A stretch of 47,852 bases of DNA from Elsinoe ampelina (taxonomy: Eukaryota), in assembly GCA_010093995.1 (NCBI GenBank), contig ML992503.1, forward strand, positions 1,813,356 through 1,861,207, given 5' to 3'. The position numbers were made by a program, and so were the translations under genes. Below, one piece after another: positions 2,792-23,524 of this stretch. How positions within the stretch are numbered: position 1 is the stretch's first letter; every line of letters begins with the position of its first letter. A model generated the notes under the pieces. The model was not told the origin of the DNA and made no database searches. It saw only the letters and a program-made list of their open reading frames with translations.

Positions 2792-3254
2792 TGTTATAAA
2801 CTGTCTAAATATAGTCTATACTAGTAGTCTAAGCTAAGCTAAGAACGAGGTAGTTCTACTTCTATAGTAGTATAGTACTAAGGTAAGAGTTAGAGAAGGT
2901 ATATCTTATAGATAATAAAGTACAATTAGATAGTATTATAAAGGCTAGCCTTAGTAATACTAGTGTTTACTATCTAGATAAGATTAACTATAGTACTTAT
3001 ATAAGGTAAGGACTATTCCTATATATATATATTCTATATTATATACTCTATATACTTCGTATACTCCGTAGTAAGAGTCGAGAGCAATATAAAGTATATA
3101 TCTACTAGTAACCTATACGCTCTATAGTCTCTAGAGTAGAGCTACTAGAGAAGATAGAGAACTAGGTAAATATCGAGCTAAGTTATATAATAACCTTAGT
3201 AGTTTAATAAGTTCTAACGTCTCTATACTCTAGCTGTCCTACTAGTTTATAATA
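2792..3254 (-). repeat. 3' LTR of element A
   Basis: Colinear with 9332-9794 at offset 6540; the visible differences are transitions. Confidence 0.95.
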
Positions 3255-3328
3255 TTACTTTTCTCCTTTAATCGAGTTATTCTAATAAGTAAGTATTCTT
3301 TCTTATTTTTATATACTATGTACTAAAT

Positions 3329-3880
3329 ATGCCTCCTAGTTATTAAAGGCATAGTAAATCTAGTATATCTATACGAAAGAATCTCTTAGAGTTTATTAAA
3401 TTATTTAGAACTAATATGCTATAAGCTTACTCTTATTATAAGTCGAAAGAGCTAGACTATAAAGTCTATATTCGGTTAGGTATTTATAGCTAGTATATTA
3501 TAAGTAACTATCCGAGTTATAACATTTAAGTAATAAAATTAAAATAGTAACATCTCTAGTCTAAGTATATTCGTTTACGAAAGGAATTAGTTATAGCTAA
3601 GACTACTAGAATAGAAGCTAAAGAAGCTTATAAAAAGGTAAAAGAGGCTCGTTAAAGAGCTATAGGTAATAAGCTTTACCTATGTAAAGAGATATAGAAA
3701 TTAAAGAATAAAGTAGAGAAAGTAATCTCCTTAGAGAAAACCTATATTTAAGTTCTAGAGTAAGAGAAAATACTATCGTTAGTAAATCCTGTCCTACTAT
3801 AGAATTAGTAATTATTTATACCTAACTCTAATTAGAGTTCCTTATTTAGTAATAATTAGAGTACTTCTATTAGCTAAGTA
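3329..3880 (+). pseudogene. Antisense ORF of element A: Zn(II)2Cys6-like cluster followed by a coiled coil (RIP-degraded; 3' end approximate)
   Basis: ATG at 3329. TAC/TAT codons at 3428, 3437, 3458, 3485, 3494 and 3518 give C-x2-C-x6-C-x8-C-x2-C-x7-C if read as RIPped TGY. An E/K/R/A-rich helical segment follows (RLRKEL...EAKEA...KEAR). Confidence 0.7.
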
Positions 3881-6800
3881 GTCTTTCTTAGGCATTCTTG
3901 TTTTTGTTTAGTGTTAGTAGCGTCGGGCCTGCCTAGTTAGTTTACTTAGGATAGGTTTTCGGTCTAGTAATCTAGAATTACTTATAAGGTAAAGTGTTCC
4001 TTTAGTTCCTATATTACCTTACTATACTAATGTCCTTTCTAGTAGATAAGATAGTAACGCTTTCCCCTTATAGATTTATAACATAAAACTCTTTTAATCT
4101 TATACTATAGCTTCTATGTCTCTTTATCTAGTTTAATAGGTCTAGGTACTACGTCTTATAGTGCTTTTTCTAATAGTAATATATAAAAGACTAGGTAGAT
4201 CCTTATATATCTAGGTAGTTCTAGTTTATATACGTTTTTATTTTTCTTTTCTAGGATCTTAAAGGGTTCTAGTTTAGTATAGTTAAGCTTCTTACTTAGT
4301 TATTTCGTTTTAATGTTTTTACTAAGGAGGTAAACTTTCTCTCTCTCCTATAGAATTAGTCCTATAATTCTCTTCTAGTTAGTAAACTCTACTATTCTTT
4401 ATAATATAAATACTATATCTTAGTATAGCTAGTTATATAACTTCTTAATGTTAGCTACTAGTATATTTATATTCTTAGATATTAGCTTAATTCTAAGTAT
4501 ATTATAGTATAGATCTAGGTGTATTCTATAGTTTATATAGAATAGTAAAACTCTATTTACTAACTTTCTATTATTAATAGCAAGCTCCGTAAGTAGTAAT
4601 AGTATTACCTATAAGTCTTACTTATAGTTTAGGTAGTAGCGTAGGTACTACTCTAGTACTTAATTTGCCTATTTAGTTTATCTATCTATTTATAAGTAAA
4701 AGAAGGTTAATAGCTTATATTTAACTCCTAGTAGATCTATAAATAATTACTAGAATTATAATATAAATAGCTTATCTCTATTAGTTATTAGGTCTTATAG
4801 TACTCCGTGCTATAAAATAATTATATAGAGAAAGGTAAAGGCTATATTCTCGATAGTTACTATTATCTTATATAGTATAAAGTAGTAATACTTCGTAAAT
4901 CTATCTACTAGAACTAGAATACTATTGTACTTTACACCTATAAGAAGCTCTTCTAATAGTAGTAGAGGTCCTATAAAGTCTATTATAACTAATTACTATA
5001 GTTTATCTAGTAGTAGTAAGAGTTATAGTAAGCTATATAGCTTATATCGTAAGTACTTAGACTTATAGCATATATTATATATAGTAATATATGTCTTAAT
5101 ATCGTTTTAGAGTTCTTTCTATAGATAGTTCTATATAATAAGTTTAATAGTCTTATTAATTCTACTATGTTCTACTATTAGGTTATTATAGTATATTTAA
5201 ATAACTTTCTATTTTTGTTCTCTTATAAGCTTCTAGGTAAGGCTATATAACTACTCTACCTTTAGGTGCTTATAGACTAGAGTACTATCTTACTACTTTA
5301 GTATAGAGGCCTCTATTATTGTTATATTTTTTAAGTAATCTAGCTAGCGGCTAAGAGCGTCTACTTCGCCGTTTTCTAATTCCTTAATATAATAGATCTA
5401 GAAGTTATAGCTTATAAGTGTCTCTAACTATTATACTTATTATCTATTAAGAACCTTAGTAGTTGTCTAATATAGAAGGTTCTTATAGTTAGTATAGACT
5501 TATATAGGTAAGGTTATTTCTTCTAGGTATACTCTCTACTTATAGAATACTTTTATAATTATAAGTAGTTCCTTGTTATATATGTCGTAGTTAAGTTTAG
5601 GTCTAGTTATTTTTCATAAGTAGTATATAATTAAGTAGTATTATTCTTCCGCGTCTTTCTATACTAGATATACTTCTATTATAAAGTCTAATATATTTGT
5701 TTCTAGTAGTACTTATCGGTCTAGGTTAAAGAGTACTAGGATAGGTACTATCGTAAGCTTAAGCTTTAGCTCCTTAAAGGCCTACTTATATCTTTTATTA
5801 AAGATAAAGCTAGTTTTCTTTTTCGTAAGGTTAGATATTAGCGTAGCTATCTTAGAGAATCCTTTAATAAACTTATAGTAGTAGTTAAAGAATTCTAGTA
5901 GTACTTAAACCTCCTTAACTATTATAAGTTCTAGCTAGTTATTTACTAACTTAATCTTCTTTAGATTAGGTCCGATACTATTAGTAGATATAATATAGCT
6001 TAGAAATTGTATCTTATATTTATAAAACTTATACTTAGAGAGCTTTACTAGTAGGTCTTTTTCTTTTAGTTTCTATAGCACCTTATAAATATGTCTTATA
6101 TGTTTATTATATATCTTTAAGAAGATAATAATATTATCTAAATATACTAAGACAAAGTTATTAAGGTATTCTTATAGAGTATTATTAATTAACTCTTAGA
6201 AGGTTATAGGAGCGTTAGTTAATCTAAAGGGTATAACGAGGTACTTATATAGACTCTATTACGTTCTAAAAGCTATTTTCTACTCTTTACTCTCCTCTAT
6301 TTATACTTAATAATAGACATCTCTAATATTAATTATAGTAAACTATTTAGCTCTAAGTAGTTAGTCTTAAAGTTTATTAATCCTTAGTAGAGAATAGTAA
6401 TTCTTCCTAGTAAGTATATATATTTATAATATTCTATTCTTTTTAGGTATAAAAAGCACTCTATATATAATAGGTAATTTTAATAGTTGTATAAATCCTT
6501 TAAGTAGGTACTTATTAATATAGTTCTTAAGAACGTTCTTCTCTTATCTCGATAGTAGTATAAGACCTTAATAGTATATTAGGGATTTACTCTCTTTAAA
6601 GGGTATTTCGTAATTCTATAGTTTATATTAGAGTAAGGCTACAATGCCTTTTCTTTCTTTAAATAAGTCCTTAAAGTCTTTATATTCTAGCGGAAGTACT
6701 TAATTACTTACGCTAGTAATAGCTCTAACTATTAGTTATACCTATACTGTTCTTATAGTTAGTATCTATAGAGCTAATTATACTTCCTACATTCTATAAT

Positions 6801-9331
6801 TACACTTAGAGAATTCGAGTGTTTCTTTAATCTAGTCTATGTCTAGATTGTGTTATTAAAGCTAGTCTATACTAAGTACTATATTATACTATATATCTAC
6901 TATATCGATTAATTGTTTTTCTATATATGTTTTAATTTTAATTATAACATTTCGTAGTTCCTAAGTAACTTTCCTATTCTTCCCTATAGAGGTTCTATCT
7001 ACTATAGTAAGTAGGTAAGGTAACTTCTTCTAATATTAATAAGGTTTAAGCTAGTTAGTAACTATTATAGAAACGTAGCTATAGTTAGCTTCTAAATCTA
7101 TTATTGCTCTTACCTTATTCCTTTGTATTTTAACTTCTAGTATAAAGTAGTTTAATATATAGATCTTTATTATGTTAAGGCTTTAGCTAGTGTTATTGTC
7201 TTACCTTATTAGGCAATAACTAGCTAGTTTTTTGTTATTATAGCTCCTTAGATACGTAGCTAATCCTCTCCCGCACGTATCTACTATTAGTACTATACCT
7301 ATTAGGCTAGTTATATCTTGTTACTATTTAATATAGTAAGGTAGACTTCTAGCGCTTAAGTTCCTTAATAACTATAAAGTCTAATAATTCTCTACTAATT
7401 ACACCGAGTAGTATTATACACCTATATTAGTATAACTATTCTCTCTAGATAGAGCTATATATTAGTGTCGAAGATAAATACGAGTTAAGTAGATTTATCT
7501 TATTGTGTCCTACTCTAGTAGTAGGTGTATATTATTATATAATTTCTCTATATTTCTATAAGGTATATCTTAAGTCGTCTACCTAGTAGTAGTACGTTGT
7601 TATTATTGTTATTATTAAATAAATTCTTATTTATATTATTATATCGTAGTTATTTAGTGTATTCTTTATTGTATTTCTCTTTATTACTACTGTCTCTAGT
7701 ATAGTTATAATTAGTAAGGCTACACTAAGTATATTTCCTTACTTAGCTATAGGGGATAGTACTATCTATTTTAATTACTAAGAAGTCTATAGTATATTTA
7801 AGACTAATAGCGTCTTCTTTAAGTATATTATATAAGTAGGTAGTATAGTACTATTTACAATTTAGATTTATATATTTCTAGAGTAATATATAATATACCT
7901 TTTCTTATAGTTTACTATAAGAGCTAAAGGTAAGGCTACTATATTATTACATGGCACTTATATCCTAGTACTTCGTTTCGATAATTATATATTAGTAATT
8001 GTCGCTAACTACCTTCTAAGGTTAGTTAATGCCGCTACTAATTATAAGGAGCCTCTCTAAGTTAAGCCCCTAGTCTAGCTATTTCGTTAGTTACCTACGC
8101 TTAGATAGCTTATATAGGAACTAACTAGATCTCTACTTATCTAATAAGTAAATATAATAAGAGTTATTATAATATACTATTTATAATAGCGTTACGTAAT
8201 AGCTTTATTATTTATTATTAGTTATAGAGATATTAAGTGTAATATCTAGAGAGAGTTCTATTATCTCTCGAGTTATTATAGACTTCTTCTATGTTTCTCT
8301 ATCTATACTAAAGGTCGTTAGGTCTTCTATAGTAGTGTTAGTCTTTTTTTCTACTAGCCTAGCAACTATTATATATAATCTATTAGCTAGCGCCTCTTAT
8401 TAGTAGTCTCTAGCTCGATGTCTAGGTCTTTTATATTTAAAATATAAATTGTCTTATTTATACTTCTCTCTCTCTTTTTCGCTAAGGAACTTTCCTCTAT
8501 AGCTACGACCTTATACCTATAAGAGGCAACTCTCGCGTATAGTGTTAAGTTCTATAGAGTCTCTATAACTCTAGGAGAAATATATATATCTAGTGTTTAC
8601 CTTATATCCTCTATAACGTTCTATATGTCGTTTATAGAGTTAGTTATTAATAGCAATTATAGTGTCTACTAGTTTCTAAAGGCTATTTAGCAGCTCGAGT
8701 ATTATTTAATCTTTAACTAAGTCGCTTAGCCCTTAATAGAATATAGAGTGTTTAGTACTATTATCCTAGTCTAGGTACATTACGAGTTACTAGAACTAGG
8801 AATAGTACTAGGCTATAGACCTATATTATTATAGTTATTAGATCTTTGTTATAGTAATATATTTCTTATTAGATATATTAAAGACTTACTTAATCTTTGC
8901 CTAAAAGATACTAAAGCTCTTAAAGATAGCCTTTATATCTAGGCTTAGTTATCTATCTAGGTAGCTACTTATATAAGGCTTAAACTACCTAAAGGTAGCG
9001 CCTTTAAGGTGTATCCTAGTATAGAGAATCTTTACTATATTATTAGTATACTTGTCTTTCTCTAGAGTAAAGAAGACTTTAAGCTAGATAAGAAAGCGCC
9101 TTAAGTAGGCGTAGTCTCTATAGAAGAGTTCTACCTCTAGCTTAGGTCTACTCTGTCCTTTCCCTATACTAAGAGACCTTCTATATTTGCTTAAGGTTAA
9201 ACTAGTAGTTAATATATTATTAATAGTAAGCTTTCCTAGCTTACTAGCGATTAAAGATACTAATAGTAACTTAGAGCAAGAGTTACTTATTAACCTTATA
9301 GCGTGCTATACTATAGTAAGAGTAGTTAAAA

Positions 9332-9794
9332 TATTACGAACTGTCTAAATATAGTCTATACTAGTAGTCTAAGCTAAGCTAAGAACGAGGTAGTTCTACT
9401 TCTATAGTAGTATAGTACTAAGGTAAGAGTTAAAGAAGGTACACCTTATAGATAATAAAGTATAATTAGATAGTATTATAAAGGCTAGTCTTAGTAATAC
9501 TAGTGTTCGCTATCTAGACAAGATTAACTATAGTACTTATATAAGGTAAGGACTATTCCTATATATATATATTCTATATTATATACTCTATATACTCTAT
9601 ATACTCTATAGTAAGAGTTAGAGGCAATATAGAGTATACGTTCGCTAGTAACCTATATACTCTATAGTCTCCGAAGTAGAGCTACTAGAGAAGATAGAGA
9701 ACTAGGTAAATATTAGACTAGGTTACGTAATAACCTTAGTAGTTTAATTAGTTCTAATGTCTCTATACTCTAGCTATTCTACTAGTTTATAACA
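9332..9794 (-). repeat. 5' LTR of element A
   Basis: Direct repeat of 2792-3254, followed by TSD TTTAG. Confidence 0.95.
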
Positions 9795-10830
9795 TTTAGA
9801 TCTACTTATAAAGTAATTAGCTAAGTATATAGCTAATTTTATCTATGTTATAAACGTTATAAGGCTTAATATTATAGACTTTAAATATGTAAGATATAAG
9901 GTTAAACTATACTTTAATTTTTATAGTATTACTAAGCTCTTCTAACCTATTACTATCTATAGCTAGTTATCGACGGAGATTAATCTCTAGATAGTGTCCT
10001 TTAAAGTACTTATACTAGCACTATCTAATAGGGGTAGGTTATATATACTAAGGTTAATTAGTTATAGTTTCTAGAAGGTAGCTAGTATAGAGATTAAGCT
10101 ACTAGTTATTTAAATTAAAGCTATTATATAATAGAAAGTATATAAAGTTAACTAGAGTACTCTCTTAAGCACTTATTAGGCGCTACTAGATAGAATATAC
10201 TATTACCTATAGCTTATATATACTCTTAAGTTAATAATAGAGAGTTTATCTAGTAATAAAAGAAAAGTGTCTAGTAAGCTCTTTTTTCTTTAGCTTGCCT
10301 TTTAACTAATAATATTTATATATAGTAGCTTATAACTACTTTTTATATTTAATTAACTATAGTAGAACTATTAGATAAGGTAGTATTTAGAAGGAGAGTA
10401 AGATAGAAGAAAGAAGAAATTCTAGAGCACTAATTAAGCCTAGTATTAGTATAGATTTAAATATTCTTATTAGCTCTAGCTAGAGTTAACCCTAAAGTAG
10501 CTAGAACTATACTATAGCTAGAACTATATCTCTAATATTAGTAACTTAAAACAGCGTAGCTCTTAATAGATAAATAGCTATAGATCTATACTAATAAGAA
10601 TAAGCTAAAGATTAAAATAGATAGATAGATAAAAGGTTATATAAGATTATAGCCTCTAAGTTTTTAAATCTTTTTACGCTAAGCATAGCTAGGAAAGAAG
10701 TGCCTATAGAGCCTAGCTACTAGATGCTTAAGGGAATTATTATTTAGTAGTCTAATTTTTCTTATCTAGTAGCCTTACTAAGGTAGCTTTCTAGGTTTAG
10801 GTATGCTATCTAGAGTCTAAACTAGCGCTT

Positions 10831-10908
10831 CGAAAAGGTGTCTTAAAGGGCATAGAGAGCGCTATCTCGAGACGTATAAAGAGGTGTCTTAAAGAGCATA
10901 AAAAGCAC
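10831..10908. repeat. Left part of a 22-24-bp tandem array that was split by the hAT insertion
   Basis: Units such as AAAAGGTGTCTTAAAGGGCAT and AGAGAGCGCTATCTCGAGACGTAT; the array resumes at 18617. Confidence 0.8.
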
Positions 10909-13329
10909 TAGTGTAACTATTAGGGCAGAGTTAGCCCCTTTAGGTTTAGTACTATACTAGGGTTTAGGTCGGCCTCTAGCTAGCGTAGTGCTACTAAGGG
11001 CTTAGTAGCACTAGTACTAGCTCCGCACCGTAGCTATAATAGCACTATACTAGCACTAGATATAGGTTAGGTTATGTATATTCTAGACGTAGTATAGTAC
11101 TAGGTTAGGTTAGTAGATAAGTAGTATAGTGCTATTAAGTCCTTAGCGTACCCTTACTAGCACTACACTAGAGTTACTATTCTTATAGTAAATTCTTATA
11201 GTAACTACTATATCCTATAACTCTTGTTACTTTTCTACTCTAAACGCTTAAAGTTATAGTAGGTAAAGGATACTAGAGAGAAGTAAAAGTTATTAATTAT
11301 TAACTCTTATATATAATTACGACCTAATAGTAATTTATAGAAGATTAACCTAATTAATATTATCTATATAACCTTTATAAGCCTATTTTACATACTTAGC
11401 TAGTAAGCTATATACTACCTAGAACTAATACTTTATTATCTTATTATCTACTTTATCTAGAGAATATTCTATCCTTAGTAAGTTTACCCTTATATAAATT
11501 ATAACTCTTAACTAGTAAACTAGAGTACTAAAGCTATTAGGTAGAGTCTAAGACTAGAATAATTAGTTCTAGGTAGTTTAGCCTTCTTACTAACTTATAG
11601 TATAGTTACGGATTGCCTTAATGCTATTAGATTACTAGTTAATAGTAAGTGTAAGGCTGTCTAGAGCCTTAATCTCTACCTAAAGGTTATTAATAAATTT
11701 ATAGTAAGTAATATTAGCCTAACAAATAATAGAGAGGCGAGTAGTAGACATAGTAGTAGATTTGCTTAAATTCTAGTAACTATTAGTATAAGTTATACTA
11801 TAGTAACGTAAAGGTATACTAGATAGTTGTTTAAATGTTTCTAAGGAGAGAAAGAAGTAACTTAGCTAATAATCTACTTATATCCCTTAGTATAATAATA
11901 GCTATTGTTCGATAATAGCTATTGTTAGTATTGTTGTTTTTTTATAATAGATAATAGCTATTGTCTATATTATTGTTCTTATAATAGGTAATGCTAGATA
12001 TATATACCTTTTAGTTACTATTTCTCCTTCTTCCTCTTAAACCTCTCTTTCTTATCGTTTAATACTTCCTTCTATAATGTCTCCTTCTTACGCTTAACTC
12101 TACCTCGACCTAGTAGATCTAATTCCCTTTTAGCCTTATAAGATAACTCCTAGCGACTATGCTAGGCCCTTATACCTACGTTAGTGTAAAGCCTATATCT
12201 ACCGTATAACTCTTATATATCTCGACTTTAATAACAACTACGAAATCTAAGCTAAATATATCTATAATAACTATAGAGGTTTAGTACTTTACTATAAAGC
12301 CTACCGCACTTACGATACCTCTTATAACTTTATAGGTGTTTCTAATCTAATCTTTCTCTATAATCTAACAAATATTAGTATAATATCTTATAGACTAATA
12401 ACATCTTTAACCTAATTAACATATAGCGCGCTATTAATTGTCTTATTCTCGATAGAAGAGTAGATCTACTCTTGCTCTTTACTATATGCTATAATATTAA
12501 ACGTAAGTAGAAGGAGTTAAATTACATTAACGATAGTAACAATAGTGTTTCTTCCGATAACTAATCTAATTAAGGTAGCATAGTCGAAGCGTTAGCGGGC
12601 TAATAGCTTTAGATAGTTATTAATAATATAGACTTACACTTTATAAAGACTTAATTACGTTGCTTCTTCCTGTAAGTAACTAAAATTAACTATAATAATA
12701 GCATATATAAGCTCTTAAAGTAGAAGTATTTATATTACCTCCGGCTACACTAGTAGTTATATTACTACCCTAAGTAGCACTATCGGTACTAGTAGTAGAA
12801 GCACCTCCCTCGTTGTTCTCTTTACTATTAGTGTTATTCTAGAAAGTAACCTAACTATTATTAGGCTTAAACTTAGTAAGAAAGTCGAGAGTATAATAAG
12901 GTAGATATTAGTAATAGTATAGAGAGTAGCGTTAGTAATAAGTTAGCTAAGGTCGTAGGTGCCGTAGTAGAGGTAGTTATTAAGGTTAATAATAAGAGAA
13001 GTAGCGCGGAGATTAGTTATAGCTTTAGCCTTTATATTATAGTTAATCTATACGATTTTCTTATTAACGTTTTTATAAGTAAATCCGGCACGACTAACGT
13101 AGATATAAATATAGTTATATTAAAGATACTAGCGGGCAAGGAAACGAGCTTCCTTAGGGCAGCTAACGAAGGGAGACTATTAGCATTAGTAGGTGGAATT
13201 ATATATAGTAATAGGGAAGATATACGCGAAAGTACTTTAGAGTAGGTATTAGTATAGATACTATAAGAGCGTTATTACTCGGAGGCTATTAACTAGATAC
13301 ACTTAGAATACTAGCCTCTAACCTTAGTA

Positions 13330-15850
13330 ACGTTATATAGTAGATCTTTGTCCTTATTATGCCCTTCTTCCTTATTAACCTCTTTGTTACTTAAACTATA
13401 GGTAGTAATATCTCTAAAGTTATTACTTATACTATCTATTCCGCTATTAGTATTATTATTAGCAGTAGTAAAATTATTTATCTTAGCCGATTAGATGTTT
13501 TAAAGATTGTTTTCTACTAGCTTAGAGACTATAATTTATTAGATTGTCTATAGAAGTAGTCTATGTCTTTAATTACTAATAATATTCTTTACTATATTAA
13601 AAATATATTTAATACCTACGCTAGTAATTAGTATTATAAGAACATTACGAGTAACATAAGCTAGTTATAGAAATAAGTACTTATTTTCTTTCTATTAAGA
13701 AAGAATATTAAATTCTAATATTTCTTATATAGGCGAAGTTCTAAGGTAATTCTTCCCTTCTATTCTTATTATATAGATGTCGCTCTACTCTTACGAAAGT
13801 ATATTATCTTAGCTAGATACTAGAGGTATAAAGCTACTCTCTATGTTTAATAAGGAAGGCTTCTTAAACTAGTAAGTAATAGACGAGGCTAGTAGAGGAG
13901 ATAGAAGAGTAGTTTAAAGAGAGTAGTTATTATTATAGTAATCGAGGTAGTCGAGGAACTATTTATAGTAAAGCAATTTAAAATATAGTTTCTACGAAGT
14001 ATACTTATATACACTAAGTTTCTAAGTTAGATTTAAGATTATACTACAATTAAATAGGAAACCTTAACCTTTACTTATTTACTTATAATACTTAGAAAGC
14101 TTAGTATAACTAGCTTTTACTACATTTTACATAACTAATAGCTAGTCTAAGTTGTTGTTCTTTTCCTAAGTAGACTTAACTACGTTAAGAAAGTCAAAAA
14201 GAGTATTATATATAAGCTATATATATTGTACTAATAGCGTATAAGACTAACTTAGCTAGTTAGTTACATTCTTAAAATTCTCTAGTATTTGAATAATAAT
14301 CTTTAGATATGCCTATTTAGCGTAGCTAAGGTAAAGGCATTTTATGTCTATATAATTAATAGATGCTATATCTTAATTAGCTAGCGCTTTATTAGTTTAG
14401 GGCTTATATACAATTATAATCTCCGCGTTAAGCTATTTATTAATAATTAGTTAAAGTTTAATAGCTTACTTATATATATTATATATTAAGTTCTAATAGG
14501 TATAAACGTCCTAAACAACTAAAAGTTATTTATAAGGAGGTAGATATACTTAAAGGGATTTAAAGTGTTAGTAGCGTTAAGGGGATTAGTTAATTATAAT
14601 ATAAATTATATAGAGCTTTAAAATTAGTTAAAAAACTATAAGAAAGAACTATAAGAAATATAACTTACTTTATAGAGAGAATTTAAAACTAATAGAGTTA
14701 TTTAAATATTATAGAGATACTACTTCTCGAGCTTATTAGCTTTCTTATTGTCCTCGGTAGTTTCTAGCTATAGGGCTTAAATAATATCTTATATAACAAG
14801 ATTAATTATATAGGCTAGATATAGAATTATATTCTCGATAGAGGACTAGTATATACTCTTCTTCTTAAGACCTTATTATACTTTAGATCGTAGAGTATTA
14901 TTGTTACTTATATTATTCGCTATAATAGTAAGAAGGTATATATTAATCTTTTTTTTTATTTAGAACTCTTAGTAGTTCCGTGCCGAGCGTAACTCTAGTA
15001 TACTATCTACTAATTAGTATAAAATCTAGTAGGTACTTACGTACTTACTAGTTGTTATTAATATAGTATATCTTTATAGCTACAAAACTTAGATAGTTAT
15101 TCGTAGACTAGCTATCTAGTATAATTGAAACTTTTGTCTAACTACTAAGATTAGTAAGAAGATTAGACTAAATGTCCTTATAGTGCTCTTTTAATAGCCT
15201 TAAGGCCTGTATCTAACCTAGAATATTAGTATATAGTTAGAGGAAATATATAAATTAGAGAAAGAAGAAATTATTAACTATTTAAAATAACTAATTACAA
15301 TTAATAAGGACCTTAATAAGCTCTTTTTTAAATTGTTCTAGGGAGAATTATAGTATATAGAATATAGTGCTAGTAGCGTTTACTTTTAATTACGTTAGAG
15401 CTATCTAAGCTACTAATTATTTATAGCTAGAAGATTTTATATTCTAGTAGCTTTAGTATCTAAGATGTTTTATTAGGTGTTTATTACTAATTAAGTTTAT
15501 TATTAAGTATTATAAAGCTCTACTATAGTAGAGATAATATATAAGAGGTATTCTATTAGTAAGCTTAGTACCTTTATTAAAGTTGGCCTAAATAACTCTA
15601 TAGCGGGTTATAGAATTCTAGTTTAGTAGGTTTCGTGTTCCGCTAACTCTTAATTTGCTACCTATTAATATTATAGGCTACTATATTTTCTAGGCTTATA
15701 TAGCTAGCTATTCTTCGAGTAGCATATCTAGTTAGTAGAGTAGACAGCTAACAATTTTAATAGTTTTATAGAATTAAGTAGAGAATAGATTGTTCTAGCA
15801 ATTAATATAGAACTCTTTAAGCTCATAGAGGAGAGATAGTAGTAGCATAA
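13330..15850 (-). pseudogene. hAT transposase (BED-type Zn finger, DDE core, hATC dimerisation domain); ends approximate
   Basis: De-RIPped motifs: CLHC...HLMKHL (~15460-15545), KVSITLDGWST (~15102-15135), LLTITADNASNN (~14897-14934), IPCLAHVINLVVQDII (~14780-14830), ILSWWKENE.SFPQLARVARDVLAIPITSVGVERVF (~13598-13710). Confidence 0.92.
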
Positions 15851-16100
15851 CAACTTCTAAGAGTATTCATAGTTAAGAATCAACTAAGTCTTTATTAAAT
15901 ACTAACATTTTAAGAGTAGAGATATAGAATATTACTAGCTATATAACAAGGAGTAGAAGACTATAAGAATACTCTATAAGAATCTATTAGCTACTCTTAA
16001 TTTATAGATTAAAAAATTTTTAATAGTATAGAACTAGAAAGCTACTAAAACTATAGTTTAATTTTCCTAACTTAAGGTTAATCTATTTATTCTTATCTAT

Positions 16101-16340
16101 NNNNNNNNNNNNNNNNNNNNNNNNNNNNNNNNNNNNNNNNNNNNNNNNNNNNNNNNNNNNNNNNNNNNNNNNNNNNNNNNNNNNNNNNNNNNNNNNNNNN
16201 NNNNNNNNNNNNNNNNNNNNNNNNNNNNNNNNNNNNNNNNNNNNNNNNNNNNNNNNNNNNNNNNNNNNNNNNNNNNNNNNNNNNNNNNNNNNNNNNNNNN
16301 NNNNNNNNNNNNNNNNNNNNNNNNNNNNNNNNNNNNNNNN
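16101..16340. other. Assembly gap (240 N)
   Basis: Run of N. Confidence 1.
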
Positions 16341-17588
16341 TACTTAGAGTTTAGTAGGTGTTATATTCTTAATAAACTTCTTAAACTTAGCTTAGTTACT
16401 ATTGTTATAGTTACTAGTATTATATAGTAAGTTAACGCTATTATAGTAGATCTTATAGGTCTATTTCTTAAGAATTCTACTAGTGCCGAGAAGATGTTTT
16501 ACTTAGCAATTTAGGAATATATTTATCTTGTTATAGAGCGCCTTCTTTATATAATTAGCAAGGAGTTACTTATAGTAAAGAAGAGTATTAGCTTTATAAA
16601 TACTACTCTATTTTTAGTAGATAGATATAAACTTATTCTTTAACTATTCCCTTATATAGAATTAGTAGATATACTATAAGAATGTACTATAAGAAACATA
16701 CTACTCTACTAGGTATAATAGTAAGTCTCTGCTATCTTCTTATATACTATATCGAAGGTAGCTTCTTTCTCCTTATTAGATATTACTTAGAATTTCTTAG
16801 AGTTCTTAAGTTTTATCTTAAGTATACGTTTTATAGAGTAATTAGTATTACTAGTAGTAGTAAGAGCTTTCTCCTCTATACTAGCTTATATAGCATAATC
16901 TCTTTACTAAATAGCTCGCTAGGTATTACTAAGCTATACTTTCTACTATAGAATTCTAAGGGGGTAGCTATAGTAAGGAGTTCTAGTATTCTAAGAGCGA
17001 TTTTTAATCTAGTATTTAATCTTATTAGCCTCGGAATTAAAACTCTATAGTCTAGTTAGTATTTAACTATAAGAAGTATCTATAAGAATTACTCCTATTA
17101 TAGCGAGGATTACTTTCTCTTCCTTAGTTATTTCTTTAGTCTTAATTACTAGAGCATTAGTTATCTTTTTCTCTTTACTAAAGGTTTACTAATCTATAGG
17201 ATTAGTAGACATTATAGATCGAGAATTAGTAGTAATTTATAAGAGAAGGTAGAATATTAAGTATAATAGGGAGCGAGATATAAGATATAAGTTTTATAAG
17301 AAGAAGATAAGAAGAGAAGGATTTAGTATTCCTTATATATATAGTAAATAGAGTAGCTAGAAATATAAGTAATAATAGGTATTAATTCTATTGTTATACT
17401 AATATAAAGTTGTTAATATTGTTAATATAAAGTCGTTATAGTAGAGAATAATAATACAAAATTTATATTCTATATACTATTATAAATTCCTTAATAAGGC
17501 TTAATATCTCGCTCTTAGTATTTTTGCCTTACTCTTCTTTACCTTTATAAATAAATTTTAATAATTAATTTAATAAATTTATATAGCT

Positions 17589-18170
17589 ATAGCTCGTAAG
17601 AAGTAAGTAACACCTCTAAAAAGAGTAAAGCTAAGAAAGTAAAGCGCTAAGAAAACCGCTACTAAAAAGCCTACTATAGATAGTTACGTAATAAAATTTA
17701 AACTAGTATTAACTAGACAAATTTGCTAGGCGAAGAGCTATAGGTTTAAGCTAGGTAGTTAGTTTCTTATAGTAAATTCTTATAGTCTTATATCTAATAT
17801 AGTATAGCTATTACTCTCCGAGAGATTTATTACTACTAGAAGATAACTAAACTTCTTATATATAAGCTTCTCTTCTTCTTTATTATTTATAACATTACGT
17901 AAGATATTAAGTTAACACTTATAAGTAGAGATTTACGCTTTATGCTAGATGCTATTAAGTGTCTCTAGAAAGTAAGTAAGGTAATACTAGTAGAATATTT
18001 TAAAAGTATATTAACTATATATTTAGAATATATAATACCTTATACTAATAACTATAGTAGACTATAATCTTAACGCTATCTATACTAAGTGTTGTACTAT
18101 TATATAGAAAGACTCTTAGCTTACTAGAAAATATTATAATAAGTACTACCTACTTACTTTCTCTAATTAG
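17589..18170 (+). pseudogene. Histone H3-like gene carried inside the hAT element, RIP-inactivated; introns 17758-17807 and 18006-18060
   Basis: De-RIPped: MARKKQ...PRKQ...HRFKPGT/VALREIxxYQKTTELLIxKLxF...QDIKSTLxSxDLRFMxDAIECLQEASEAMLVEYFE/DCNLNAIHAKxxTIMQKDSQLAR. Both introns have a GT donor, a CTAAT branch and a TAG acceptor, and restore the H3 frame. Confidence 0.92.
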
Positions 18171-18616
18171 TAAGATCTCTTCTCTATAATGCTATAAGAA
18201 TAGACTATAAGAAATAGACAGGTGTATTTTTATATAGACTAGACTATTAAATTTCCTTTTTATAGACTTATTATAATGCTAAAGTATAGTATAGTAACTA
18301 TAGTTGCCTTAAAGCCTAACTAAGCTATAGTACTATAACATAGTATAATACTAGGATTTAACCCTAGTACTAATTTAGTATAGTACTATTATAGTGTAGT
18401 ATAGCGCTATTATAGTATAGTGCTATTCTTGCTTAACTACAGTGCGGTGCTAGTGCTAGTGTAGCTCGGCGTAGTGCTAGTGCTAGTGCTAATATAGTAG
18501 AGTATAGAGCTAGTGCTATTTAGTTTAGTACCGGGTGCTAACCTGCTAAGAATAGCTCTATACTAGCACCGGGGTTGGCCTTCGGCCGCCCTAACCCCGC
18601 CCTAACAGTCACACTA

Positions 18617-18708
18617 AAAAGCACTATCTTAAAGGGCATAAAAAGCGCTATCTTAAAGAGTATAAAAAGCGCTGTCTCGAAGGGCATAAAAAGCACTATC
18701 TCGAAGGA
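18617..18708. repeat. Right part of the 24-bp tandem array (about 4 units, AAAAAGCGCTATCTYRAAGGGCAT)
   Basis: Units are directly visible after the hAT right TIR, the first overlapping the TSD. Confidence 0.85.
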
Positions 18709-20550
18709 CAAGAAAGCTAGGTATATTAGCTTATAACTAGACCTTGACTATATTCTAGAGTTGAAAAGGGATGCGAAGCGGGCGTCTCCATAGGCTAGAG
18801 ACTAAAAAGGACTAACACGGCCACCGGATAAGAAAAATCGGGCCACCGAATAACAATTCCCGATGCTCGACGTCGCGTATACCCGGGGAGGGGCGGCGAC
18901 CGGCATTGTGCATGGGTGGAAGATCCACTGATGCGGTCCCCAAGATGAGGGATTTTCTTCTTGAAGAGACGAGATGCTCTGTCCAAGGTTCAGCTTCACT
19001 GTATGTGAGCAAGGGGAGCGTGAATAAGTGGAGCATGAACATGTGGAGGCGGGTGATGCGGCTCGACGTGAGTGCACCATTCAAGCAGGTCCACAGGTTC
19101 ACGAGGCAAGAAACAAAGAGACGGGCACTTCGCTCGGGTAGACAGAAAGGGGAAAGCAAAGCTAAAATGCAAACGTGGCGAAAACTATGCTTGACGAATG
19201 ACATTCTGCAAAGGTGCATCATGCCGCGTTCAGGGAGTGATCGACCAAAGGGGGGCAGCCTCAGCTCACCGCGAGGCTAGCGAATCAATATCGATGAGCG
19301 TGAGCGGTGATACCGCCGCAACGTGACAGTGCGCAAAACCTCTGATGGACAGCGGTGAATAGACCGATGGGTAATAATGTAGAATTTGGTTGTCTCACAG
19401 CATCGCCAGCGCATGTTGTAGGACTCGGCCAGGAATATGACGCACCGGTGTTTTGTTCCTGCCGCATCGGGACGGCATGAGGCATGTCGATCTCGGATCG
19501 CGGCAGAGAAAACAAAATTCTAATTTCCACACCAAGCATCATTCAGTTGCTCAGGTGAACTTTTAACCTTGAATGCTCGCGCAATCGCCAAAGAAGTTTT
19601 CCCGAACGCAAAAAAGGCAATGGTAGAGCATATTGGAACCGGCGGTGGACCGTCTGAGGGACAAACATGGGTAGTAGGCCGTGACATGACTCTCTGCCAA
19701 ACGAGCAGGCTACTGGTAAAAAGCATCGGAAATAACAGACTAGTGGCACCATGTCATGCTCGTGGACGCAGCAGATCTTGCGATATTGTCGTGTATCCCA
19801 CAGTCGAACATGTTCTCTAGCTGCCTGATGGGAAACATTATCATGTACTACCGCCCGCCGTTCGGATTGACTACCGCTCCAAAATAATCAGGATCTCAAT
19901 CAGATCGGGTCGCCACGACGTCGGAACAAGGCCTGTGCGGAGGAAAAAAGGTGTTGCGGCCGGCTCCCCGTGTGTTCCCATCGTCGATTGAACAGCTTAG
20001 CGTCGTTTGGCTTCACAGCGACTCGCTCATTCCATCGATCTTCTCCCATCTCCACACTGGTCTCACTGGCACGACTGGATCCATCGAAGGCCCGCTGGTG
20101 TCCACTCACACATCCTGCCGCATTCTGCCCATGACCGGTTTCTTGTCTCCCCTGTCACATTCACCAATTCGCCACATCTCCGGGCGAGCCACATGAACTG
20201 CCCACCCAGGTGCCCATTTTTTTTTTCTCCCACGCTGCTAGCCCGTCGAGCTTATTAGAGGTGCTGCATCGCGGACCAATTCTGCCCCTTCACCGTTCAG
20301 TCCAACAAAGAATCGCAACTTCATTGACCCAAAGTATTCACACAAAAGACACAACTTCTGTCCACGCCCGCGCCTCGCGCCACCCAGCTTTGCATCTCGC
20401 GTGCAATGACCCCGCTCCTCCCGCAACTAGCTCCGATCCAACTGAAACTCTGATCGCAAAGCACAAGCAAACTCGCAACGCCAGCCGGCAGGGCAGCTCA
20501 GCGTCGAACAGGCCGAACCCAAGCAGCAGCCTCATTGTTCCGCCTTCGTC

Positions 20551-21300
20551 ATGCCACGCAGGTCCGCTCAGAATCTCTCTCCACAATCCCTCCACCACCA
20601 TCAGCACCAATATACGTCCCTACACCAGCAACCTCAAGCCATTCACGACTTTACCTCGTCCATTGACACATCCATCCTCGGCTACCCGACAACCACGAGC
20701 TTCGACCTCGTCCTCCCGCAGCCCGGCGTCAAACAGCCGATTATGATGACCGACTCGGTCCACTCCAAATACGGCCAGATCACACCTCCTGAAGACCACT
20801 GGAAGCAGCCTTGGGAAGCCATCAACCCATCAATGAACCCAGAACAGTTTATGACCGGTCGCGACCGCAGTCAGAGCCGAGACTCGTCGTCAAGCCTTCC
20901 CGCCACCTCGTCAGGCAGGGTTGACAAGAAGGACAAATACCGAGAGAAGAATCGTGTCGCGGCGGCAAAGTGTAGGGCAAAGAAGAAAGAGCACGTCGAC
21001 GGCCTGGAGGAGAACCACCGGACACAGAGCATGCTCAATGCTCTGCTCAAGCAGACCGAGCAGAACCTGCGGGACGAGCTGTCCTTCTGGCGGACGCAGG
21101 CGCTACAACACGCCTTCTGCGACTGCTCAGCCGTGCAGGACTACAACCTCAAAAAGGCTCGCGCCCTCGCCGCTGACAAGAACTTTGGCGACCAAGATGG
21201 TCTTCGTCGAGATTCGATGAACCAGTCGCCGTCGTCCAAGGTGGGCGCCATGTCCTTCTACCCACAACCGCATCCAGAGTTTGACGCCCAAGCCCCGTGA
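20551..21300 (+). CDS. bZIP transcription factor, ATF/CREB (Atf21/AtfB-like) type, 249 aa, intronless
   Basis: Basic region KYREKNRVAAAKCRAKKK; zipper LEENHRTQSMLNALLKQTEQNLRDEL; downstream HAFCDC motif typical of fungal Atf-like bZIPs; ITPPED motif upstream. Confidence 0.9.
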   Translation: MPRRSAQNLSPQSLHHHQHQYTSLHQQPQAIHDFTSSIDTSILGYPTTTSFDLVLPQPGVKQPIMMTDSVHSKYGQITPPEDHWKQPWEAINPSMNPEQFMTGRDRSQSRDSSSSLPATSSGRVDKKDKYREKNRVAAAKCRAKKKEHVDGLEENHRTQSMLNALLKQTEQNLRDELSFWRTQALQHAFCDCSAVQDYNLKKARALAADKNFGDQDGLRRDSMNQSPSSKVGAMSFYPQPHPEFDAQAP

Positions 21301-21799
21301 CGGCCGCCACATCACCTCCACGACAGTACCTGCTCCAGACAGACCCCCTCTTCGCATGGTTCGATGATTGATTCATCGTTCGCATACACGGCGCAATCTG
21401 CTTCTTGATTTTAAATCCGGACAAACTCCAACCCGGCTGCGACCCTCTTGTTAGCCACCTGGACAGGTTCCTTTTATGCAAAGTCTTACCTCGCCACCAT
21501 CAACCATCTCGCACCGCACCGATCTCTCCGTCTATCCAGCTCGACCATGCTGGAAATTTTTACTATCATCGTCGACTGTAATAACGAATATTTGTTTATC
21601 CTCTCCTAGTTTCTCCGGAGGTTCCGCAGCGGAATGTCGGATCCATGCGACTGATGCAAGCAATAGCGGGCGGCGTTGGTTGGCTTTTGTTTTTTCTCTC
21701 GTTTTGATAACGGCCGAAGACTCTTATGGCGAGGCGACGATGAACCTCGGGTCGGTGACAAAATCCCAAAAAGCCTATGAAGGAGGAGGCGTCAAATGA

Positions 21800-21813
21800 G
21801 TGTGTGTGTGTGT
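21800..21813. repeat. (GT)7 microsatellite
   Basis: GTGTGTGTGTGTGT. Confidence 0.8.
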
Positions 21814-23349
21814 CGTGTCGCTTCTCTTTGCTGTTCCCATGGTCATGGCAAAAGGTGTTACCGAAGGCAACATGTATATAAGATACCCAAGGATCGTATC
21901 CGCAGGGAGAACCTAGCAAAGCAACGAGTAATAGAATCGAAGCGCACGAGATCCTTTGACCTGCTTGATGAGATTGACAGAAGTGAACGCTCAACTTACT
22001 GGTAGTGACCACTCACCTTGCCCTGCCGTCACGCAAATTTTCCCATGCCAGTGGTATTCCAGTCGACGGCAAGGAACATCAATCCAACAACTCTGCCGTC
22101 CGGCATGTATCGATGTCGTCTCCCATCGTCAGACCACCCGTCCGAACCACCCTGTTCGCACAACCACGGCTCCCCGTCCGCGGCAGGAAAGCCAGTTATG
22201 TTCAACCCTGCTTCTCGAACCCGTTCGTGACCAGTGGGAGAAATCCAACACAGACGACCTCCGTCTCGCGATGATAACATCTCCACCAAACCAAATGGGA
22301 ATAAAAACAACCTCCTCATGTACGATGCGAAAACCCGAACGATACCAAGTTGGGCCCCGAGGATTATATACGCAAACCTCCTTGGATTTCTCTGCCTGCT
22401 CCTGGGCAGCCCGCCGCGGACGCACGAATGAGAAGACGCAGATTTGAGTGGGAAGACAAGCGAGCCAATAGGGTGCCGGAATCATGATTCGCGCTTCTTA
22501 GGGCTGTGAAGTTTTGGCGTTGGATCGAGATGTCGGGCGAGGAGGCCGGCTCCGGGAGAGAGAGGGGCGGCTCTGCGATGAGGCTCTGGGCCGAAGAGTG
22601 CCCGAGGGATCTCATCGCGGGAAGGGGGGAGGCTGAAGCCGCTGAACTTTGGACGGAGGTTGGTCCGAACGGGTGTTCGCATTTCGCATTCTTCTGGTGG
22701 AGGGGGGGATCTTGCATGGCTTTTTGATTAGGGCGGGTGGCTGCAGTGGGCAGGTGTTCGTGGCGGTACCTGAGATGGGGAGGGTGCTGGTGAGGGCATG
22801 TTGGCGTCACGATGAGGGAACAGTGGATGGTAGGGTTTGGGTTTCGATTTCAAGATCTTTGGTTGAGCTCGCACTTCTCTTACCACGATACGTTTTGTTC
22901 TCCTGCATTGAAGAAGTAGAGACGTCGCTCGATCAGTCGCTCCGTCTCTGATTTCTGGCAATCCAAGTCCTTTCTTCACCGGGCGTAGGACGTAGCCTTC
23001 CAGATTGCCTACTTTCATGGATCCTCTACGGGCTAATTTTGAACTAGCTGAACACCCCCAAACTACACGTTGCCAGCGAAATTCGAAATAGCACGATCCG
23101 TCAATCACCAAACCCGAATCCTGCCCAGGTCATTGGAGCCACCACCATCGAACCTGTCACAGATATATCATGGAACATGCTGTGCCGCACACATACACCT
23201 CAGCTAGGTGCTGGGGGATCGCGGACTTCACTTTCTGGAATGGATTGGCTCCAATAGAGGTCCGATGTTAATACGTTGTCATGATCTGCTTCGTCAACGG
23301 TACTGGAGCACCATGCCTTCTATGCCTTGTGTTTCCCATTCTTGCTTGA

Positions 23350-23355
23350 TATAAG
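23350..23355 (+). promoter_or_regulatory. Possible TATA box of the 23525 gene
   Basis: TATAAG about 170 bp upstream of an ATG in a good CACCATG context. Confidence 0.4.
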
Positions 23356-23524
23356 CTACAAGGTGAGCCTCCTCGAGAGGACGATATCATACAACAGTTC
23401 TTTTTACTTCGATCAAGTCATATTTTGTACTAGACACTGATCAGTCTACGGCTGAACACATTCCCCTTCGCTCCAGATCACACACCCAGCTGCTGTCAGC
23501 TTTTGCTTAGCTGCTCTAGTCACC

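Follow-up and report, generated by a model that had tools for sequence, protein, structure and literature searches.

A hAT transposon with a histone H3-like gene in Elsinoe ampelina, degraded by repeat-induced point mutation, and its relatives in other fungi

The element and its ends

We analysed a stretch of 47,852 nucleotides of Elsinoe ampelina DNA (contig ML992503.1 of assembly GCA_010093995.1, positions 1,813,356 to 1,861,207 of the forward strand), referred to below as the window. It is a mosaic of GC-rich blocks (52-56% GC) and AT-rich blocks (20-38% GC). One of the AT-rich blocks contains a hAT transposon with three genes: a transposase, a central open reading frame (ORF), and a gene similar to that of histone H3, here named H3L. 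Transposons of the hAT type that carry an H3 gene are already known. An element of about 5.6 kb that combines a transposase and a central ORF with an H3-like gene, present in 26 nearly identical copies, was described in Pyrenophora tritici-repentis (Ptr) by Manning et al. (2013; PMC3538342). Hundreds of H3-like copies that repeat-induced point mutation (RIP) has killed, residing in hATs of about 9.5 kb, were reported in Pseudocercospora fijiensis and five relatives by Dhillon et al. (2019; PMC6710886). Thus the two precedents named in the initial annotation of the window are in print.

The boundaries of the element and the gap within it are as follows.

10909..18616, no strand: hAT transposon, RIP-degraded, 7708 bp including a run of Ns, delimited by terminal inverted repeats (TIRs), a target site duplication (TSD), contig breaks and a jump in depth
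10901..10908: left TSD, AAAAGCAC, identical to the right copy in 8/8 positions
18617..18624: right TSD, AAAAGCAC, identical to the left copy in 8/8 positions
10909..10934, plus strand: left TIR, starting with TAGTGT, compared with the reverse complement of 18591-18616
18591..18616, minus strand: right TIR, ending with ACACTA
16101..16340: run of 240 Ns within the element, a gap or masked sequence

The true left end is at 10909, which corrects an earlier reading. The TIRs of 26 nt have 22 identical positions, and the remaining four are G<->A transitions. A TSD of 8 bp is typical for hAT elements (Dhillon et al. 2019; PMC6710886). Read from right to left, the element consists of H3L on the plus strand, an intergenic region of approximately 376 bp, the central ORF and the transposase, both on the minus strand, and finally 2.6 kb of further sequence. 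The H3L stop codon is situated 446 bp inside the right end. The gene therefore occupies the place assigned to it in the initial annotation, about 450 bp inside the right TIR of a complete hAT element with its own transposase. By blastn and tblastn, the element, H3L and the transposase each occur only once in the window.

In a contig of a related organism (organism B, run X4), position 12055 is joined directly to 13383, skipping 1327 bp. This suggests either a nested insertion in the window copy or a deletion in the X4 copy. Without the stretch 12055-13383, the transposase-distal part has approximately the same length as in intact relatives.

The histone H3-like gene

The coding sequence of H3L occupies 17589-18170 on the plus strand and is divided into three exons.

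17589..17757, plus strand: exon 1, N-terminal tail; the ATG is now ATA; three stops
17758..17807, plus strand: intron A, 50 nt, phase 1, in the codon equivalent to Thr45; GTTAGT...TAG, with a motif pair at 17764-17786
17808..18005, plus strand: exon 2, alphaN to alpha2 of the histone fold
18006..18060, plus strand: intron B, 55 nt, phase 1, in the codon equivalent to Asp106; GTATAT...TAG, no motif
18061..18170, plus strand: exon 3, end of alpha2, alpha3 and the H3L-type C-terminal tail; stop TAG

With introns A and B removed, the model comprises 159 codons. The start codon has been destroyed, and there are seven internal stops. All of these are TAA or TAG, and in the alignment of the spliced model they correspond to Gln or Pro codons of H3.

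When 17589-18200 is translated with the stops read as X, H3-like strings appear in two frames. The fragment 17810-17971 was compared with PDB sequences by phmmer: H3 was the match in all 60 rows listed of 149 at E<=10, and the best match (E 0.0048) covered H3 residues 46-92. The fragment 18027-18167 matched H3 residues 99-131 with E about 0.3. Among 1.84 billion representative proteins, 15 matched the fragment 17810-18004 at E<=1e-3; seven of them were fetched, and all seven contain H3 repeats.

Because RIP converts C to T and G to A, we also scored each codon of H3L for any pre-RIP codon (with C>T and G>A reverted) encoding the H3 residue. Among the 85 codons of the histone fold, 38 encode the identical residue as they stand and 65 after reversion. 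When the test was repeated for 74,118 further placements within AT-rich sequence of the window, the mean was 13.7, the standard deviation 3.3 and the maximum 28, so that the observed value has z of about 15. The proposal of an H3-like gene at this place and strand is thus borne out by phmmer and by the RIP-aware codon test, and the homology to H3 is real, far beyond chance. The fold is collinear with H3 residues 46-131 across both introns, and the N-terminus after reversion reads M-A-R-.-K-Q, as in H3. A weak Pfam match of the raw pieces to Crassvirus (E 0.063) was taken as chance.

Two other intron models were considered and rejected. The initial annotation described the gene as having introns, and two of them stand, 17758-17807 and 18006-18060. 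A third candidate, a 42-nt first intron at 17688-17729, is in frame and unnecessary, and the tails of the related genes described below are unbroken. An intron at 17972-18026 was discarded because its GTAAGT is coding (KVSK, equivalent to EASE of H3) and the relatives have the intron at the Asp106 codon.

RIP and copy number

The RIP indices of the element are 1.84 for TpA/ApT and 0.23 for (CpA+TpG)/(ApC+GpT), whereas the neighbouring GC-rich block has 0.56 and 1.28, respectively, in agreement with the earlier description of the gene as RIPped. On the side of the GC-rich island (18870-24800), RIP ceases within approximately 250 bp of the hAT end.

Two public runs of the same organism, X1 and X2, contain 64-70% of the sampled words, and their contigs were placed on the window at 80% likeness. 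This gave 3594 contig pieces for X1 and 2888 for X2. The summed X1 depth is approximately 5400-9500 across the element and 103 and 156 on the flanks. The ratio is about 40-60x, although it is only a rough guide to copy number, as these data are contigs. Unique contigs of X1 and X2 stop at 10938 and 10956 and resume at 18547. The places of difference in X1 include 396 transitions and four transversions. Hence the family is multicopy, as had been supposed, and its copies have diverged almost solely by RIP-type transitions.

In the related organism (X4) the flank is about 91% identical to that of the window, and 12,430 pieces were placed on the element. The family is therefore common to at least two species.

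The transposase and the central ORF

The other two genes are encoded on the minus strand, divergently from H3L.

13521..15638, minus strand: transposase coding region as far as homology is detectable, by tblastn of the Ptr protein P0023 and of P0019-P0022; about 75 N-terminal residues are outside the mapped part
13527..13757, minus strand: Dimer_Tnp_hAT (PF05699), C-terminal dimerisation domain; E 7.8e-6, 26 bits, cut-off 21.4
14616..14668, minus strand: transposase intron, 53 nt, GTAAGT..AG, with a motif pair, between high-scoring segment pairs (HSPs) in frames -2 and -1
14949..14950, minus strand: private 1-nt insertion, a frameshift in the transposase, seen as a change of frame between HSPs
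16347..17212, minus strand: central ORF, exons A-C, by tblastn of the exons of L001, L003 and L011; the end of the ORF is missing, either within the run of Ns or past it
17044..17091, minus strand: central-ORF intron with a motif pair; the exon B HSP begins just downstream
16651..16701, minus strand: central-ORF intron with a motif pair, GTATGT..AG
17213..17588: intergenic region from which the central ORF and H3L diverge; a presumed shared promoter, judging by the gene positions, with the same divergent layout in five of five informative relatives

P0023 aligned to the window by tblastn at 15323-13521 (query residues 26-612) with E 4.8e-57, and hATs of Aspergillus and Penicillium gave only E 8e-5 to 6e-3. 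The core region of the RIPped transposase thus aligns to hAT transposases, yet no Pfam core domain was called in it, and the N-terminal (BED) part lies outside the alignment. DUF659 had no match in any scanned frame of the element. The intron 14668-14616 is situated where the Ptr protein is spliced after SLRK, a place that P0019 and P0020 read through. The base inserted at 14949 is absent from nine X1 and nine X2 contigs.

The central ORF probably begins with the ATG at 17212-17210, judging by the sequence. In tblastn its exon B (17035-16718) gave a best E of 1.6e-7, and exon C (16499-16347) gave E 0.009. The conserved central ORF of the lineage matches no Pfam family. Its AlphaFold model is all-helical with a pTM (predicted template modelling score) of 0.28, too poor for a fold search. 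The protein terminates in a long acidic tail rich in D and E. A role in histone binding or DNA targeting is conceivable.

Related elements

A stretch of 258 residues of the RIPped transposase of the window led to one relative, P0019. This in turn led to a tight group of proteins 46-60% identical, including multicopy 'Dimer-Tnp-hAT' proteins of Ptr, with other fungal hATs at 34% or less. One member, P0023, is the transposase of the published Ptr H3-carrying hAT, as its C-terminal residues can be read on the reverse strand at the start of the Ptr consensus (Ptr_cons). Scanning metagenome contigs with an alignment of the transposase group gave 80 loci, 12 of them close. Ten of the close contigs are long (at least 4 kb). 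H3 was detected by tblastn in L001, L003, L005, L011 and L012, that is, in all five long contigs that extend 2.7 kb or more upstream of the transposase; the remaining five are cut off sooner on that side and are uninformative on H3L. In all five informative relatives H3L lies upstream of the transposase, divergent to it and about 2 kb away. These metagenome elements are un-RIPped, with GC content of 43-45%.

A central ORF is also present in the relatives (L001 1580-2617, L003 1779-2822, L005 1300-2325, L011 1767-2903), where it is multi-exon and conserved. The second transposase intron, after AYE, is present in 10/10 relatives and absent from the window family.

The H3L genes have a C-terminal signature, DCN.NAIH followed by the tail LA..YY.K. 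The corresponding part in the window reads NYNLNAIY...YYNKYY, which with G>A reverted becomes DCNLNAIH. Canonical H3 resembles H3L in its collinear fold and N-terminal start; it differs in having DTNLC instead of DCNxN and the tail LARRIRGERA instead of LA..YY.K, and H3L is encoded inside a transposon. In one protein search the signature was found in one of 119 H3-family proteins (P0102), and none of the others had even one of its two parts. This is the spliced product of an H3L of the L011/L012 type, with a Pfam Histone match at E 5e-36. That search was dominated by canonical H3, and the Ptr H3L protein was not among the returns; the Ptr gene was therefore taken from the published consensus. 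The N-terminal tail and loop 1 differ in length among H3L genes, and the likeness of the group to CenH3 is limited to this variable tail and variable-length loop. A 5-residue insertion in loop 1, common to the window and copy 1 of S. musiva, was rejected as a marker, because the loop length varies among H3L genes.

The introns of H3L

Splicing of the H3L genes of L001, L003 and L005 produces intact ORFs of 144, 156 and 141 amino acids. Each has two phase-1 introns, one in the Thr45 codon (48-49 nt) and one in the Asp106 codon (47-49 nt). The place, phase and motif of intron A in these loci and in the Ptr consensus are the same as in the window. Intron A also occurs in the consensus sequences of C. 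zeae-maydis (Czm), S. musiva (Smu) copy 2 and P. fijiensis (Pfi) copy 2. Intron B is kept in place and phase in L001, L003, L005 and L011 and in the Ptr, Czm and Pfi copy-2 consensi. The presence of introns varies. L011 and L012 have intron B only, Smu copy 2 has intron A only, and Pfi copy 2 has both; Pfi and Smu copy 1 lack both and have a canonical-like C-terminus, which is divergent in copy 2 of Pfi and Smu.

At 17805, the 3' end of intron A, four contigs in X1 and four in X2 diverge from the window upstream. A subfamily with another intron-A body therefore exists in the same genome.

The introns of canonical H3 in Pezizomycotina are located at Ala7, His39/Pro43 and Leu61 (Yun & Nishida 2011, positions by our own count of columns in Fig. 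S3/Table S3). That survey covers 11 Pezizomycotina species, all from classes other than Dothideomycetes. None of its canonical H3 genes has an intron at Asp106, and the site nearest to intron A is 1-2 codons off. The initial annotation took the introns as retained from a host gene and as an indication of capture at the DNA level. This is not supported. The same introns occur in the Ptr, Czm and Pfi copy-2 consensi and in metagenome relatives, intron A has the transposon's motif, and neither position matches a canonical Pezizomycotina site. Since they are conserved in relatives and intron A shares its build with further introns of the element, the H3L introns are a trait of the transposon's gene and not evidence on how the H3 gene was acquired.

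A motif pair in the ends and introns of the element

The motif TTCTTATAGT occurs 18 times in the window (1.27 expected), and 11 of the occurrences are inside the element. The pair TTCTTATAGT N3 TTCTTATAGT with at most three mismatches occurs seven times, always inside the element (0.19 expected). Three of these pairs are outside introns.

11180..11202, plus strand: subterminal motif pair TTCTTATAGT N3 TTCTTATAGT near the left end, directed inward; the corresponding place in intact relatives is occupied by TATCACAG N5 TATCACAG
18191..18213, minus strand: subterminal motif pair near the right end, directed inward
15960..15982, minus strand: motif pair upstream of the mapped transposase region; L005 and L003 also have pairs just upstream of the transposase

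The other four are in intron A of H3L (17764, plus strand), the transposase intron and two central-ORF introns (minus strand). In un-RIPped relatives the motif is TATCACAG N5 TATCACAG, and the TTATAG core of the window is explained by CpA>TpA changes of this motif. L003 has 15 pairs with at most two mismatches, against 0.01 expected. In the relatives, the pairs are observed near both ends, between genes, and in introns of all three genes, 1-13 nt past the intron GT. The motif-bearing introns have a uniform build: the 5' splice site, the motif pair, a CTAAY branch site and a YAG acceptor. Among ten related loci, the pair is present in the SLRK intron in 9/10 and in the AYE intron in 10/10 (19/20 transposase introns), always in the sense orientation. 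The Ptr consensus has the same arrangement of motifs, including pairs near both ends. In the Mycosphaerellaceae consensi, intron A is filled with a repeat of their own, of the TAGTCGGCA or TAGCCGGCA type.

That the motif is kept within introns, although the transposases of these elements share only 47-58% identity (best segment) with the query, argues for a function. Most economically, one may guess that the pair is a candidate binding site of a protein encoded by the element, either the BED-finger transposase or the central-ORF protein, and that inside genes such a site would be tolerated only in introns. Alternatively, the uniformly sense orientation suggests that the pair may act at the RNA level, in the control of splicing. 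Our literature searches found no description of such motif-bearing introns, or of such a cis signal, for hAT elements.

Introns of shared sequence in different genes are also known from introner-like elements, likewise in the class Dothideomycetes. According to Collemare et al. (2013; PMC3609843), host genes contain hundreds of copies of these elements, which exceed regular introns in length and fold stably. The introns of the window are about 48-55 nt long and confined to the genes of one transposon, and the part they share is the subterminal motif. Their length argues against counting them as introner-like elements.

Comparison with published elements

The Ptr element has a transposase of the same clade as the window and the same three genes in the same order and orientation. 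Its H3L likewise has two phase-1 introns and the signature DCNxNAIHAKRVTIQ.KD, and the motif pair in its intron A is of the TATCACAG type, which the window has in RIPped form. However, the Ptr copies are about 5.6 kb long, nearly identical and intact, whereas the window copy is 7.7 kb long and destroyed by RIP. It has approximately 1.2 kb of extra unmatched DNA at the transposase-distal end, its terminal sequences differ, and its family is without the AYE transposase intron that 10/10 relatives have. The initial annotation had left it open whether the window and published elements reflect the same or an independent capture. For Ptr the question is answered as the same lineage, by the transposase clade (as judged from E-values, not from a tree), the layout, the H3L signature and both phase-1 introns. 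Dhillon et al. (2019; PMC6710886) describe the Ptr case as 'recent and independent' and report no nucleotide similarity of the Ptr element to the others.

The Mycosphaerellaceae set consists of P. fijiensis, P. musae (Pmu), P. eumusae (Peu), C. zeae-maydis, S. musiva and S. populicola, with consensi from supplementary file 2 of Dhillon et al. (PMC6710886). As described there, these elements resemble that of the window in being RIP-killed, multicopy and located in AT-rich blocks, with an 8-bp TSD and termini starting with TAG, and they too have an H3-like gene near one end. The Czm copy and the second copies of Pfi and Smu have intron position(s) as in the window, with intron A filled by the short repeat of the element. 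On the other hand, these elements are about 9.5 kb long and, as reported, often have two H3-like copies, whereas the window has one. The repeat motif reads differently, being of the TAGTCGGCA / TAGCCGGCA type. The published account reports DUF659 and no dimerisation domain, whereas the window has the dimerisation domain and no DUF659 match. It also interprets the gene as a captured intronless retrocopy in which the native introns are absent, and the sequence equivalent to intron B as a '16 AA insertion'. The insertion published for Pfi matches intron B of Pfi copy 2, whose length in that consensus is 49 nt. We found nothing in print on a common origin for the H3-like genes of Ptr and of Mycosphaerellaceae.

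Origin of the element and its histone gene

The best explanation of these data is that the window contains a RIP-inactivated, structurally complete copy of a three-gene hAT with a divergent H3L by one terminus, which belongs to the Ptr-type lineage and is related to the H3-carrying hATs of Mycosphaerellaceae. We are highly confident of this, although several observations weigh against it. Firstly, none of the four raw RIPped H3L pieces reaches the threshold of the Pfam Histone family (PF00125). Secondly, the RIP-reverted fold is identical to canonical H3 in 69/90 positions and to the H3L of the relatives in 55-68 of 93-95. As canonical H3 is equally similar, the assignment to the H3L group relies on the C-terminal signature, the introns and synteny rather than on a tree. 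Thirdly, neither tblastx nor blastn detected any likeness between the left 2.6 kb of the element and the related loci. Finally, the TIR sequence is unlike every published consensus end that was read (Czm, Peu, Pfi, Pmu, Smu, Ptr), and an exact search of the consensus file of Dhillon et al. for the end motifs of the window gave no match.

RIP has inactivated this copy and introduced the seven stops into H3L; the start codon is destroyed, and the transposase of this copy is frameshifted. We infer that the source of H3L was not the H3 of this genome itself. H3L seems rather to be a long-standing, selected component of the transposon lineage, with its own signature, a variable tail and two phase-1 introns. 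In live elements its likeliest role would be that of an H3 variant altering chromatin on or around the element.

A broader reading covers both published groups, and here we see the arguments for and against as balanced. The H3L genes of Ptr and Mycosphaerellaceae would descend from one H3 variant gene travelling with a single three-gene hAT lineage, in keeping with the intact ORF in live copies and the two conserved introns. The motif pair (TATCACAG N5 TATCACAG or its local variant) would be an element-wide signal, pointing to a single binding protein, itself encoded by the element, that would coordinate the control of the element's genes or of its chromatin. In its boldest form, this reading has the binding protein marking the sites where the element's own H3 variant would be deposited.

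A possible but rather doubtful alternative is that the H3L of the lineage began as a retrocopy of a host H3 and gained both introns inside the transposon, intron A by copying an intron of the element's type. It agrees with the published report that native introns are absent (Dhillon et al. 2019; PMC6710886), with the motif pair and build that intron A shares with the central-ORF and transposase introns, and with the variable presence of introns (L011 and L012 without intron A, Smu and Pfi copy 1 without both). However, intron loss accounts equally well for the latter. Moreover, intron B is free of the motif and is present in every copy-2-type H3L read except that of Smu copy 2. In Pfi and Smu, the intronless copy 1, with its canonical-like C-terminus, may have been acquired separately and later, in which case the retrocopy argument in print may apply to another copy of the gene.

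It is very unlikely that a local hAT captured the organism's own H3 independently at the DNA level, together with its native introns. This would fit the two GT..AG interruptions of 50 and 55 nt, neither length being divisible by three, the high overall similarity to canonical H3, and the position of intron A within 1-2 codons of Pezizomycotina H3 site 18, Pro43 (Yun & Nishida Fig. S3, by our own column count). But the Ptr consensus and un-RIPped elements of unrelated metagenome samples share these introns and their phases, the C-terminal signature and the order of the genes, intron A contains the motif pair of the transposon just as introns of the two other genes do, and the 2011 survey has no Asp106 intron in any canonical Pezizomycotina H3. 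The last alternative, a resemblance that arose by chance in RIPped DNA of low complexity or a separate fragment that just happens to be situated within the element, can practically be dismissed: the raw pieces and the whole-frame plus-strand translations have no Pfam Histone match (the latter no Pfam match at all), but none of the 74,118 placements comes near the RIP-aware score, all 60 PDB rows listed are H3, the pieces are collinear with H3 across two introns, and position and orientation are conserved in five of five informative relatives.

Surroundings

The hAT is inserted into a smaller element resembling a miniature inverted-repeat transposable element (MITE).

10732..10774, plus strand: left 43-bp TIR of the MITE-like element, starting with GGGAATT; it differs from the right arm solely by C>T or G>A changes
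18819..18861, minus strand: right 43-bp TIR of the MITE-like element; there is another copy elsewhere in the genome

The MITE-like element is about 430 bp long, is split by the hAT into 10723-10913 and 18617-18870, and has a possible 9-bp TSD, GATGCTTAA / GATGCTCGA. RIP has affected its left arm but not its right one, and a 7-kb X1 contig carries another copy. Inside it is a 24-bp tandem array, also split by the hAT, which now occupies 10836-10905 and 18615-18701. The hAT arrived by cut-and-paste transposition into this array, producing the 8-bp duplication.

At approximately 1100-10700, the minus strand contains strings resembling reverse transcriptase, RNase H and integrase (for instance, YLDNIIIF and a chromo-less integrase region), and a repeated stretch near 2800 and 9400 looks like a long terminal repeat (LTR). 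These sequences suggest that the region may be a RIPped LTR retrotransposon of the Gypsy type. On the other side, a GC-rich, non-RIPped island (18870-24800) directly adjoins the element. It has a bZIP-like open frame (20446-21300) and a frame of 417 codons from 23525 with a start resembling a signal peptide. A second run of Ns, 505 long (25645-26149), is found where the next AT-rich block (25000-47852) begins; this block, too, is strongly RIPped (TpA/ApT 2.17).

Implications

By itself, the observation in the window repeats a published phenomenon, and its added value comes from comparison with intact relatives. The window is also an example of how RIP conceals such genes from Pfam-based screens. 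What is new beyond the window is, firstly, that the Ptr and window elements form one lineage, secondly, that the second copy in Mycosphaerellaceae has the H3L introns, and finally, that the introns and ends of the lineage carry a conserved motif pair. The published retrocopy account may need to be revisited, as canonical GT..AG introns are present in the published consensi, in conserved positions. Apparently, the H3 variant is a gene that the transposon lineage has conserved and no accidental passenger, which makes the role of a transposon's own histone testable in the intact Ptr and metagenome copies.

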